Both the position numbers and the translations under genes were made by a program. The notes beneath the pieces were generated by a model. It saw nothing but the letters and a program-made list of their open reading frames with translations, searched no databases and was not told the origin of the DNA. Below are positions 38,172 through 42,073 of a stretch of 64,000 bases of DNA, piece after piece (position 1 is the stretch's first letter; each line of letters starts with the position of its first letter). The stretch lies in assembly GCF_000002075.1 (NCBI RefSeq), contig NW_004797288.1, positions 560,426 to 624,425 on the forward strand, given 5' to 3'. This DNA comes from Aplysia californica (Eukaryota).

Positions 38172-38390
38172 GGCACTATTTCTCCGAACGTTCGGGAAAA
38201 TAAAGCTGGGCACTATTTCTCCGAACGTTCGGGAAAATAAAGCTGGGCACTATTTCTCCGAACGTTCGGGAAAATAAAGCTGGGCACTATTTCTCCGAAC
38301 ACTGTGAAATCTCATCCTTTCCCGCAAATTTCGGATATTATATAGATCTAGATCTAGATCTAGATCTAGATATCTAGATCTATAATTATA
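38172..38390 (+). repeat. 37-bp tandem array (3.5 units) plus shared flank and (TAGATC)n, copy A
   Basis: GGCACTATTTCTCCGAACGTTCGGGAAAATAAAGCTG at 38172, 38209, 38246 and partial at 38283. Confidence 0.95.
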
Positions 38391-38906
38391 GTATTAAAAA
38401 TCAACGATTTAGATCTAGGCCCTAAAAGATGAGTCCTGCACTGTCGATCTTCTGTGGAGAGATGGTACTTCAAACCATCATAGGATTCGTTTTACAACTT
38501 TAGTACAAGAACATTGATTTACAAATCTTTCGGCGCTTTTTCGGTATTTCCCACCCCCCTTATTTGAGCCTGACCTACATCTAGATCTAGATCTATACGT
38601 TTGATTCGCGGTGAGCTAAGATATCAAACCTAACAACAGCAAAACATTAAATTGTGATAAAATTCAGGGGGGCATGCCCCCCTGAAACCCCCCTACTCTT
38701 GGGGCCAAAACCCGTGAATAACAATTGCGGGGTGGGAACTAGATCTAGATCTAGATCTAGATCTACCGAAAAAGCACCAATCTTTCAAGGTTTAGAATAG
38801 ATTAAGAACTAATGATGAAATATGAGTGTACTGCATGTTTCTGTGAAATAGACCTAGATCTACACCATAAAAAATTTAAGTTAAAAATTCTAAAATGTCA
38901 TCATAC

Positions 38907-39225
38907 CTTGCAAAGCAAAGAGATGCACTGGCAAAGAATGGGTGAAGGGTCTCCCTCCAAACAAGAGTCCAGGATCATCTCCAGGTGAACTTGAATCTGA
39001 ATCTGGAGAACTGCTTCTGTGAGTTCCACCTGAAGCTCCCGGAATGCTCAGTGACCCAGAGTTTCCAGAGCTCTGAAAGTTTCCAAGGCTTCTAGCTCTG
39101 GCCCTCGATGACTGAGCCCCATTACGAGCCACAACATCTGTTCCTGCTCCTCCGTTCGAGCCTGGGGTACTCGCGGAATACGTCCTCATGCGCGGTTGAT
39201 TGTTTGTACTAAGCTTCAAACCCAT
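38907..39225 (-). CDS. ZNRF2: ZNRF1/2-like coding exon 1
   Basis: Kozak CACCATGG. MGLKLS myristoylation consensus, RMRTYS and RARARS basophilic kinase motifs, HSLP motif. Donor CAAG|GTATGA. Confidence 0.92.
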
Positions 39226-39337
39226 GGTGAAGGTGAATATGGTCCTTTCCTGTCGAAATGAACAAAACTCGTGAAAGCTATTAATCACAGAAATAAACTA
39301 AATCCAAAAGTACGTTACGACTAAGCCACAGTGTTGT

Positions 39338-39752
39338 GCCATCTTCGCCGCCATTTTGCTTTCCTTGTTTGCGTCAGGAACCAACACAAAAATGACGTAA
39401 AAGATCATGTGAGAAGTAAAAATAGAAAATTTAAGAAGTAAATGATAACATGAGCATGATTATGCTAAATATCTTTAACTTGGAATACTAATACACTAAT
39501 TCATCGGGGTTCCGACTACTTAAACTAAATTAAAAACATTCTATGAGAAGAGCAGTGAGAAGTCCGTCTCTTGTATTCCCCACCTTAAATACTTCTGTCA
39601 CAAAGAGAAGTGGCCATTGGATGTAAACAAAGAAAGCGTGTTATCGTGTAGTATTGTCTAAAGTCACGTGATGGTGACAAAATGGTCGATGGCTCTCAGC
39701 TGATAAATGTTCAGGAAACAATCTTGCCATCGAAAATCACTAATTACGAGGT
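39338..39752. promoter_or_regulatory. Putative bidirectional promoter for ZNRF (-) and SLC38A7 (+), including probable non-coding SLC38A7 exon ending at donor 39750/39751
   Basis: YY1-like GCCATCTT and CCGCCATTTT (39338-39357), TGACGTAA (39393), TCATGTGA (39405), ATTGG (39616), GTCACGTGAT (39663-39672), donor GAG|GTAAAA. Divergent gene layout. Confidence 0.6.
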
Positions 39753-40128
39753 AAAAGTATCGAAATGTTCTAACGAGTAACTAATGTGTTAAATTTGTGT
39801 GGTATGCTTTTTGGGGCTCTTTGGAAATTGTCTTTCCGTTTGTTTACATGAGAAACAGAAGTGATTGCTGCTAAGGTCCTTTCTTTAAGGACCGAATGGC
39901 AAAATGGCCATCTAAGCAAGGCAAGGCAGGAGCTGGCTAAGTCAACTAAGTGAACCCTACCACATTAGCCAGTAATATTTTTCTGCCTTTTTTGTTCTAA
40001 AAATTTATTTTGGCTGGATTGAACTTTGGTGGACCCACTGTATTTACGTGTGTATTAATGCGCACTAGCCATAACAGTGGGGGGTTTCAGAGAGGTTGCC
40101 CCCGTGCCGTGGCAAAAATAATCAGGGC

Positions 40129-40342
40129 GGCACTATTTCTCCGAACGTTCAGGAAAATAAAGCTGGGCACTATTTCTCTGAACGTTCGAGAAAATAAAGC
40201 TGTTCACTATTTCTCCGAACGTTCTGGAAAATAAAGCTGGGCACAAACGTTCGGGAAAATAAAGCTGGGCACTATTTCTCCGAACACTCTGAAATCACAT
40301 CCTTTCCCGCTAATTTCGGATATATATATAGATCTATAATTA
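40129..40342 (+). repeat. 37-bp tandem array (about 4.5 units) plus shared flank, copy B
   Basis: Same unit and same downstream CTGAAATCACATCCTTTCCCGC..TTTCGGATA..AGATCTATAATTATA as copy A. Confidence 0.95.
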
Positions 40343-40357
40343 TATTATCGAAGTGAC

Positions 40358-40655
40358 TATTCGGACTCTAGTCCGAAACTTTTCGGACTCTAGTCCGAAT
40401 ATGAAAAAATGTTATTCGGACTCTGATTCTTGTCCAGCATGACATCACTTCCGACTTCCTGTGACTCGTGACTCCGGCTTCCTGTCCTTCCTCACTCGTG
40501 ACTCGCCTCAGGCTGGGTAGAGACCGGGATCACTTCGGGCAAAATGGCGTTAAATTGTGCCAGAGCCGAGTTTTTATCTTATGATGAATTTGAGGCCAGC
40601 CTGAAAAGTTAAAGCGCTTCTAATGTTTATTCGTCAAGAGGTCATGATCAGAAGC
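40358..40655 (+). mobile_element. Possible 5' end of a MULE/FAR1-like transposon with its promoter and broken ORF start
   Basis: Tandem palindromes TTCGGACTCTAGTCCGAA, ACTTCC motifs, AAAATGGCG start. MALNCARAEFLSYDEFEASLKS* resembles the F-x-S-Y-x-E-F N-terminus of MULE/ZSWIM3-like proteins. Confidence 0.4.
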
Positions 40656-40918
40656 AAATTCTATGAGAAGAGCAGGCCATTGGATGTTAGCGTGTGTTGG
40701 GGTCGGAGAGAGAGAGAGAGAGAGAATTAAATGAGTATGAGTGAAACTGAAAGAGAGGAACGACTCATGAGCCCTGGAGTGAATGGATCCTGTGTTTCTA
40801 TTTTTGTACTTTGAACTGTTACTGAATAAAGCCCGAAAAACAAACACACACACGTTCCTCACTCTCCACTTACACACTTACTACCACCACACACAGACAC
40901 ACTCACACACATGCATAC

Positions 40919-40951
<33 letters not shown>

Positions 40952-41921
40952 GCAGCAGCAAATTTTTAGGTCTATTATTTCAATTTTCAAGAGCTAGTCT
41001 TGAGATTTTTAGATGAGTGTAAAAACGTGAAAAAGAAAAGTTTCACAACCGAATGAAATCAAAATTAGAACAGCCCATAAACAACCACAAAAATTAACAA
41101 ATAAGGGCGTGAGTCCACCTGTCCGAAGAAGATTGGCTGTTTTAACTACTTAATGTGCGTTTAATTTTAAAACAAAGTACAGGATATTACATGTAAATTA
41201 TGGAATCACACACATTAAGGGGCCTGCCAGTGTCAGTAGATGTAATCGATTTTGATGGAACGTACGCTCTAACATAACACATTTAAATCTATATATATAT
41301 ACATATGTATATATTTAGAATCTAATGAAGGTAGGACCATCAAATTAAATGATGTTACACTATACAACATCCCCCCGGCCCACCTTTTTTCCCCAATAAA
41401 AAAAAATTGATAGAAAAACAACGCGTCAGAACAATAACAAGAAAGAAAAAAATACACACTAACAAAATAAAACACCACAAAGAGGAAAAAATAAAAGTAA
41501 CTGTAACGTATTCAACAAATAAATGTGGTGACAACAAGTGAGAAAGAGACGAAGTGGAGCTTGGTGAACTTTCTTTCAAAAGTAAAGAGGTTCGGTTTCT
41601 TTCTTTTTTTTTTTTTAAATTTTTATTTGACTTTTTTTTCCCCGACCAAAAATCGAGCCACGATTGATTGGTCGCGGCCGCTACAAACGCAGATGCTAGT
41701 TCTACGTGTCATTATCAATAACCCTCCGTAGATCTAGATCTAGACAGCACACGAGTGAACACAACACATTAAGTTTAAGAGCAGCACCCTTCATAGGCAT
41801 ATATCTCTAGCGAAAAACTGTTTGGAACTGTAGCATTTCTTTATATAAATATTTACTGCGGACATTTTTTGGACCGATTGAACCATATTGTATACGAACA
41901 ATCTTTGGTAGGCCTATACTA

Positions 41922-42073
41922 TAATTATAGATCTATATAATATCCGAAATTTGCGGGAAAGGATGTGATTTCAGAGTGTTTGGAGAAATAGTGCCCAGCT
42001 TTATTTTCCCGAACGTTCGGAGAAATAGTGCCTAGCTTTATTTTCCCTAACGTTCGGAGAAATAGTGCCGGCC
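41922..42073 (-). repeat. 37-bp tandem array (2.5 units) plus shared flank, copy C, inverted
   Basis: Reverse complement of copies A and B. Confidence 0.93.

Follow-up and report, generated by a model that had tools for sequence, protein, structure and literature searches.

Perfect heat-shock-element motifs beside the ZNRF/SLC38A7 promoter of Aplysia californica are carried by a young, probably mobile tandem-array element

A stretch of 64,000 nucleotides of Aplysia californica DNA (assembly GCF_000002075.1, contig NW_004797288.1, positions 560,426 to 624,425; hereafter the window, in whose own numbering coordinates are given) carries three tandem arrays of a 37-bp unit around the divergent promoter of ZNRF1/2 and SLC38A7, and the unit contains a perfect three-pentamer heat-shock element (HSE), the type of site bound by heat-shock factor (HSF). 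The locus raises the question of whether a mobile HSE cassette has wired a lysosomal gene pair into the heat-shock regulon, as a preliminary description proposed, or whether the arrays are simply copies of a transposon that happens to contain the motif. We consider the neutral accumulation of a young, non-autonomous element in open promoter-proximal DNA to be the most likely answer, a reading that we hold with moderate confidence, and the sequence gives no apparent sign of co-option to control either ZNRF or SLC38A7.

Tandem Repeats Finder placed period-37 arrays at 38172-38300 (3.5 copies, 100% matches), 40129-40285 (4.5 copies), and 41978-42069 (2.5 copies, inverted), in agreement with the earlier report of one 37-bp unit in three arrays. 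Each array belongs to an element of ∼160 to 230 bp that consists of the quasi-palindromic unit, repeated 2.5 to 4.5 times, and a common tail. The three copies are as follows:

38168-38394, plus strand: copy A, with a GGCC end, the array at 38172-38300, and the tail, within ZNRF intron 1
40125-40348, plus strand: copy B, with the array at 40129-40285 and the common tail
41916-42073, minus strand (inverted): copy C, with the array at 41978-42069 and the common tail

All copies share one layout, in which a GGCC-type end is followed by 2 to 4 units and an 18-bp partial unit, a unique tail portion of ∼40 bp, a TAGATC motif, and AT-rich 12-bp palindromes. The array of copy A holds three full units and the 18-bp partial with zero substitutions, and in its tail (TAGATC)n has expanded into a microsatellite (38343-38382), with the AT-rich palindromes terminal. 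Copy B holds three full units, one deleted unit of 28 bp, and one partial unit, with 6 substitutions among them, and its likeness to copy C possibly reaches leftward to ∼40115. Copy C holds two full units and a partial, and a TTC is broken in one of the full units. The tails, described at the outset as the same unique flank, do correspond, differing between pairs of copies at 2 to 3 positions per 56 bp. Since both ends and the tail are common to the three copies, the mobile unit is the array plus the tail, and since every substitution is private to one unit, decay postdates array formation and insertion. The arrays are copies of one discrete, young, probably mobile element; the common ends and tail bear out this part of the preliminary description, while the label "dispersed" would be an extrapolation from three local copies.

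The unit is an imperfect hairpin centered on a 12-bp palindrome, and single-strand folding of the copies beats that of shuffled sequences (z of −4.4 for copy C and −8.3 for copy A). BLAST, nhmmer --max, and CpG-tolerant scans found no further copy in the window, even a degenerate one, as had been claimed for the arrays; outside the three copies the best nhmmer E value was at least 0.85 (the strongest matches being TAGATC repeats), and the best ungapped alignments had 13 to 16 mismatches per 37 positions. The possibility that the 5′ flanks and the tail are themselves degenerate units was set aside as suggestive only (54, 385, 993, and 121 of 1,000 shuffles did equally well). The element matched no known RNA family or tRNA, and a prokaryotic or phage origin was rejected, with 0 exact matches to 33-nt and 24-nt patterns in prokaryotic genomes and none in phage records.

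An exact search for GAAnnTTCnnGAA returned 7 occurrences in the 64 kb, every one inside the arrays and divided 3 + 3 + 1, the same count as in the preliminary description:

38186, 38223, and 38260 (span 38186-38272), plus strand: perfect GAAnnTTCnnGAA cores of copy A, from the pattern search
40143, 40180, and 40217 (span 40143-40229), plus strand: perfect cores of copy B, with a fourth at 40245 that lacks its first G
42006-42018, minus strand: perfect core of copy C, with a second at 42043-42055 that has a core mismatch

The three alternating nGAAn/nTTCn pentamers are present in 7 of 8 full-length units, and the statement that each intact unit carries the site therefore needs one correction, as in copy C a TTC-to-TTA change has removed the perfect site from the first unit; the deleted (ninth) unit, in copy B, has lost the G of a GAA. 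Shuffles contained 1.19 exact patterns on average, and 0 of 100 reached 7, but all 7 sites descend from one ancestral unit (n = 1), so that the excess over chance is pseudo-replicated. One-mismatch HSEs show no excess in the window (34 versus 28.5 by chance). The putative HSE would have originated in the ancestral unit, either by chance in a GAA/TTC palindrome or through element-level use of HSF. The unit also contains TTCnnnGAA, which we take to be a STAT-type motif and which is intact in 10 of 12 units.

The pentamers of the unit are CGAAC, CGAAC, and GGAAA, and 0 of 3 fit the preferred AGAAN, although the first-position A is described as a preference of HSEs rather than a requirement (PMC2936546, PMC2871787). 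No fourth pentamer stands in register within the unit, and the sites are single trimers 37 bp apart. Of the earlier appeal to cooperative binding by HSF trimers, the fit of the unit to a three-pentamer HSE stands, but sites spaced at 37 bp form no contiguous array, and multi-trimer cooperativity is described for HSEs of more than three pentamers (PMC2871787). According to a study of Drosophila, 107 of 815 strong HSE motifs (<15%) were bound, bound HSEs were enriched in gene bodies and active chromatin, and HSF at a promoter was often without mRNA change (PMC2936546). By analogy with this pattern, HSF binding at the arrays is plausible, and regulation of either gene would be a further, separate step.

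Selection on the GAA/TTC cores had been argued from copy B, in which all four substitutions within the 15-mers fall at n positions. These positions are correctly given, but the argument took in just the three intact units of that copy, and the bias vanishes once all copies are included and CpG is weighted. Across 11 alignable units we count 9 substitutions, all private, with 4 at n positions and 2 at core positions of the 15-mer and 3 outside it; one of the two core substitutions sits in a terminal partial unit, where there is no full site. Most are at CpG, as had been cautioned (5 of the 6 within the 15-mer), and at CpG positions there are 3 substitutions in 38 exposed bases for n positions and 2 in 19 for core positions. 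Since 4 of 6 n positions and 2 of 9 core positions lie in CpG, weighting lifts the copy B value (4 of 4 at n) from p = 0.026 under uniform mutation to 0.07 to 0.16 with CpG weights of 3 to 20. For all copies the n-versus-core comparison has low power throughout, with p of 0.09 to 0.29 unweighted and, with weights of 3 to 20, 0.38 to 0.62 for 4 of 6; under CpG weighting, dropping the partial unit (4 of 5) gives 0.21 to 0.40 and counting in the deletion (4 of 7) gives 0.54 to 0.78. No core protection is evident across the copies, and counts of this size would decide neither for nor against selection.

The genes and promoter around the copies are as follows:

38907-39225, minus strand: first coding exon of ZNRF1/2, with the ATG at 39225 and a GT donor at 38906
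43777-43961, plus strand: first coding exon of SLC38A7, with the ATG at 43800
39350-39750, no strand assigned: putative shared core promoter and SLC38A7 non-coding first exon, placed by motifs

Both gene names from the preliminary description hold. The RING exon of the minus-strand gene matches ZNRF1 chain 5ywr_B (E = 2.9e-17), with later exons near 35600, 33570 (the RING exon), and 32380, and the A. californica SLC38A7 protein aligns to ten coding exons from 43800 to ∼60455 at 96 to 100% identity. One SLC38A7 exon gave a 99% match to that protein, while a PDB search using an SLC38A7 exon gave no match; Pfam gave names to 5 of 14 fragments. We take ZNRF and SLC38A7 to be lysosome-associated proteins, and SLC38A7 has been described as a lysosomal glutamine transporter. 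The transcription starts are placed by motifs only, with a YY1-like motif at 39350 and a candidate donor at 39751, and the 39350-39750 core promoter contains no perfect HSE. It does contain two MITF/TFEB-type E-boxes, one beside each inferred start (TCATGTGA at 39405-39412 and TCACGTGA at 39664, as GTCACGTGAT at 39663-39672), which presumably are of the CLEAR type and would be in keeping with a lysosomal gene pair natively regulated through such sites; window-wide, such E-boxes occur at chance level (5 versus 4.76).

On these motif-inferred starts, copy A lies 1.05 to 1.18 kb inside ZNRF intron 1, and copies B and C lie 0.45 to 0.6 kb and 2.3 to 2.4 kb, respectively, inside the SLC38A7 5′ intron, that is, probably between its non-coding exon and its first coding exon. 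The arrays do flank the promoter within ∼2.4 kb of the inferred starts, as described, but they fall outside the intergenic promoter. Copies B and C (40115-40348 and 41912-42083) are inverted relative to each other within the same inferred SLC38A7 intron, with a predicted duplex of −250 kcal/mol, a value without a shuffle control, and could possibly form long double-stranded pre-mRNA, a substrate for editing or small RNAs.

Proximity to a promoter had been offered as a hint of heat-shock function, but three HSE-free repeat motifs also gather in this CpG-richer region of ∼4.7 to 5 kb. Both copies of a G/C-run hairpin motif in the window fall in the same 4.7 kb, mutually inverted, at 38663-38700 and 40073-40107, adjoining copies A and B. 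Of the 7 (TAGATC)n loci that lie outside the element, the same interval holds 4 (p of about 0.001), and of the 49 CCGAA/TTCGG half-sites likewise outside it, 15, with six in one repeat; these counts are interdependent, and CpG enrichment contributes to them. CpG observed/expected is 0.68 in the cluster region with the element masked versus 0.45 elsewhere. A tRNA-headed family resembling short interspersed elements (SINEs) is, by contrast, scattered from 4.5 to 58 kb. Because HSE-free repeats cluster likewise, promoter-proximal gathering does not point to a heat-shock function; the HSE-bearing repeat shares it with several of its neighbors.

We propose that the Aplysia element is young, short, non-coding, and mobile, with a minisatellite body that would have expanded from an imperfect hairpin of 37 bp and an array length that varies via slippage or unequal exchange. 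Its transposition would be aided by an autonomous partner, most likely one encoding a rolling-circle (Helitron2/Helentron-type) transposase, because the ends are unequal, terminal inverted repeats (TIRs) and a consistent target-site duplication are lacking, the insertion sites are AT-rich, and terminal palindromes, a microsatellite, and an internal tandem array are present. The copies would have gathered here because CpG-richer promoter DNA takes up or retains repeats of several families, with local hopping as a possible aid, and HSF may bind some of them upon heat shock while they decay neutrally.

Structural tests are consistent with this class but do not fix it. Comparison of the first and last 25 nt found no TIR (longest match, 5 to 6 nt, equalled by 122 to 374 of 500 shuffles), and the 11- to 15-bp subterminal inverted repeats of HINE elements were not found, the best exact matches being 6, 5, and 8 bp in copies A, B, and C (the 8-bp match, in copy C only, was equalled by 10 of 500 shuffles). 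Other HINE features are present, namely, short palindromes (two of 12 bp, AT-rich, at the tail end), an internal tandem array, and a microsatellite. No target-site duplication is common to the three copies: TTAA stands on either side of copy A only (38164-38167 and 38394-38397), and moving the ends by one base yields a 3-bp match that fits copies B and C but not copy A. A T-run flank, as in HINE insertion between Ts, is seen at copy A only, and an A/T insertion context like that of Helitrons fits 2 of 3 copies. The canonical Helitron TC/CTRR ends are absent from the copies, which, read tail first, begin with TA and end with CTTA (A and C) or CTGA (B); the tail-first order is palindrome, microsatellite, spacer, and array. 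No autonomous partner was seen in the 64-kb window. The element probably behaves like a rolling-circle non-autonomous element, yet we make no formal assignment to Helitron or HINE. The idea that copies A and C are the TIRs of a single 3.9-kb element enclosing the promoter was rejected, as they share only trivial TA matches, the enclosed DNA has conserved exons, and copy B lies inside.

Several observations weigh against neutral accumulation of such an element. The three copies fit into 3.9 kb, and the remaining 59 kb has none (p of about 0.011 under uniform placement), and all are within 2.6 kb of a promoter (p of about 0.001, a post hoc value), while no copy occurs at the other promoter in the window, that of MCAT, at about 2 to 3.2 kb. 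Perfect HSEs are rare in shuffled units (170 of 400,000, or 548 of 400,000 when the 12-bp palindrome is imposed); the motif is rare for one unit, but not once one allows for how many repeat families a genome contains and how many motifs could have attracted notice. Non-CpG core positions have 0 changes per 62 exposed bases versus 1 per 16 at non-CpG n positions, which is the direction expected of constraint, in tiny numbers. HSF binding is reported to be favored by active chromatin (PMC2936546). Finally, neither canonical Helitron ends nor HINE subterminal inverted repeats were found in the three copies, and the class is to that extent unproven.

The alternative that survives best, although we regard it as unlikely, is that a cut-and-paste transposon (hAT, Harbinger, or Kolobok type) uses the unit as a subterminal repeat to which its transposase binds; the HSE match would then be incidental, and the copies would be derivatives that have suffered internal deletions or kept one end only. 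Palindromic subterminal repeats are known from cut-and-paste elements; a literature look-up gave no confirmation for this motif. The unit, the tail, and a neighboring 22-bp palindromic repeat (40356-40399) that lacks HSE spacing all contain CCGAA/TTCGG half-sites, and the TTAA on both sides of copy A and the terminal GGCC preceded by TAA, TCA, and TAA in the three copies would suit such a transposon. None of copies A, B, and C has a TIR, however, copies B and C have no matching 4-bp duplication, and all three end at the same tail position, unlike random truncations.

Co-option as a heat-shock enhancer, in which HSF sites of the element render ZNRF and/or SLC38A7 heat-inducible in the manner of Caenorhabditis, appears to us improbable. 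Seven perfect sites within ∼2.4 kb of the inferred starts, in CpG-richer and probably open DNA, do speak for it, as do the enrichment of bound HSEs in genes and active chromatin of Drosophila (PMC2936546) and the activity of Caenorhabditis elegans Helitron HSEs within 2.5 kb (PMC6927752). Set against these are the lack of core protection across copies, the single trimers at 37-bp spacing, the 0 of 3 pentamers with the AGAAN form described as preferred (PMC2936546, PMC2871787), and the Drosophila findings that <15% of strong motifs (107 of 815) were bound and that promoter binding was often non-inducing (PMC2936546). Moreover, the Caenorhabditis effect was described for HSEs upstream of a start, and here each copy is upstream of one gene but inside the other, and literature on SLC38A7, ZNRF2, TFEB, and heat shock showed no HSF link in titles or the beginnings of abstracts. 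A wider version, in which a promoter-seeking minisatellite brings functional HSF (possibly STAT) sites to Aplysia first introns genome-wide and creates heat-inducible genes, seems to us just as doubtful. Local duplication of a minisatellite-bearing segment via template switching at hairpins, with no genome-wide family, would suit three copies in 3.9 kb with none elsewhere in 64 kb and a strong self-complementarity that favors such switching, but it is very improbable given that both ends coincide in the three copies despite unrelated flanks and that no unit variant is common to any two copies.

Neutral accumulation thus remains our preferred account, and the caveats that the preliminary description attached to its own proposal (a transposon repeat, CpG sites, and small numbers) have proved the better reading. 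If it is right, the locus adds one more short tandem-array HINE/Helitron-like element of the molluscan kind and is a reminder that repeat-borne motifs, however many are counted, amount in effect to a sample of one. If the arrays were functional, transposon-delivered HSEs would extend from nematodes to a shallow-water mollusc that is a neuroscience model, HSF would be linked to two lysosome-associated genes, and the locus would be an independent molluscan case of Caenorhabditis-type rewiring, plus promoter targeting. The public Aplysia genome makes a family-wide test cheap.

Several other repeats lie near the copies. Copy B gives way directly to a second repeat-like segment (40349-40538), which combines palindromic units of 22 bp (40356-40399) with ETS-like repeats of 23 bp (40445-40497) and has inverted ends of 8 bp. 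A YY1-like motif comes next, at 40541, and the segment could be either a further small element or an alternative start of SLC38A7; kinship of its 22-bp palindromic repeat (40349-40425) with the 37-bp unit was unsupported (509 of 1,000 shuffles equal). At 37452-37562 are three ACCGGGTC repeats whose closing 7-mer is that of the 40349-40538 segment, with a weak resemblance to the unit junction (8 of 1,000 shuffles) and a one-mismatch HSE at 37474. A local tandem duplication of ∼130 bp (37754-37885 and 37942-38063, 71% identity) stands just upstream of copy A, and 38395-38890 shows a degenerate inverted likeness of both of its ends (4 of 300 shuffles) and several (TAGATC)n runs, possibly an old miniature inverted-repeat transposable element. 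The SINE-like family, in which A and B boxes of the tRNA type are combined with an A-rich tail, is represented at 42172-42678 (minus strand), with relatives at 4544-4898, 5244-5710, 44015, 47556-48097, 57269, and 58395; many copies are the 3′ end only, and Rfam and ARAGORN gave no match. Within an SLC38A7 intron, 49812-51647 (plus strand) holds a broken non-LTR (long terminal repeat) retrotransposon with reverse transcriptase and RNase H domains, and a ∼300-bp duplicated segment (47218-47515 and 56947-57245, 92 to 95% identical) occurs just past two different SLC38A7 exons.

The MCAT gene occupies about 3.2 to 12 kb of the window, and its first exon (3232-4155, plus strand) encodes a long N-terminal extension ahead of the acyltransferase domain, like gastropod homologues of 437 to 507 amino acids. 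Bulinus homologues of MCAT and SLC38A7 bear locus tags 046062 and 046064, two apart, which indicates that the neighborhood long predates the near-identical copies of the repeat; ZNRF would be the intervening gene in Bulinus.

Heat-responsive repeats are reportedly found elsewhere, as among the LTR elements of Macrostomum. No HSE-bearing repeat of Aplysia or other gastropods appeared in literature titles or the beginnings of abstracts, and Repbase or Dfam may have a name for the family. The precedent cited in the preliminary description does exist: in C. elegans, Helitrons are reported to hold 61% of HSEs, and the 2.5 kb downstream of bound Helitron HSEs contain 60 heat-induced genes where 13 were expected (PMC6927752). 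Like Helitron1_CE, HelitronY1_CE, HelitronY4_CE, and others of Caenorhabditis, the Aplysia element carries repeat-borne tandem HSE motifs within ∼2.5 kb of gene starts, but the Caenorhabditis HSEs overlap in tandem and have measured HSF-1 binding and induction (PMC6927752), whereas here single sites 37 bp apart are read from sequence, and the element lacks TC...CTRR ends. The unit matches the canonical HSE in its exact three alternating GAA/TTC cores (PMC2936546, PMC2871787) and departs from it in that no pentamer has the first-position A, there is no fourth pentamer, and no site lies ≤400 bp upstream of an inferred start. The asymmetric hairpin ends recall the Helitron2 FoHeli, in which a short terminal sequence is tandemly repeated (PMC5148889), and repeated termini of this style are, by analogy, one possible route to an array at an element end; an asymmetric terminal inverted repeat like that of FoHeli is not evident in the element, nor an autonomous partner in the window. 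HINEs are defined by a 12- to 15-bp subterminal inverted repeat pair (PMC4067079), and the Aplysia element differs in having no such pair of 11 to 15 bp and in being flanked by Ts at copy A only. Compared with the oyster Cg_HINE, its unit is 37 bp rather than mostly 140 to 180 bp (PMC7492417), and its array nearly reaches one end, with no clear right-hand module. The closest likeness in overall form is nevertheless to HINE/DINE-1-like Helentrons, including oyster Cg_HINE and pearl, which are also short, non-coding elements with unequal ends, in mollusc hosts (PMC4067079, PMC7492417). The likeness to HINE and Cg_HINE extends to the internal tandem array, the microsatellite, and the terminal palindromes, and probably to the lack of a consistent target-site duplication and the AT- or T-rich insertion sites. 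Cg_HINE joins a left module to an array in the order palindrome, microsatellite, spacer, and array, and this left module plus array is the order in which the Aplysia element reads on its opposite strand (PMC7492417).

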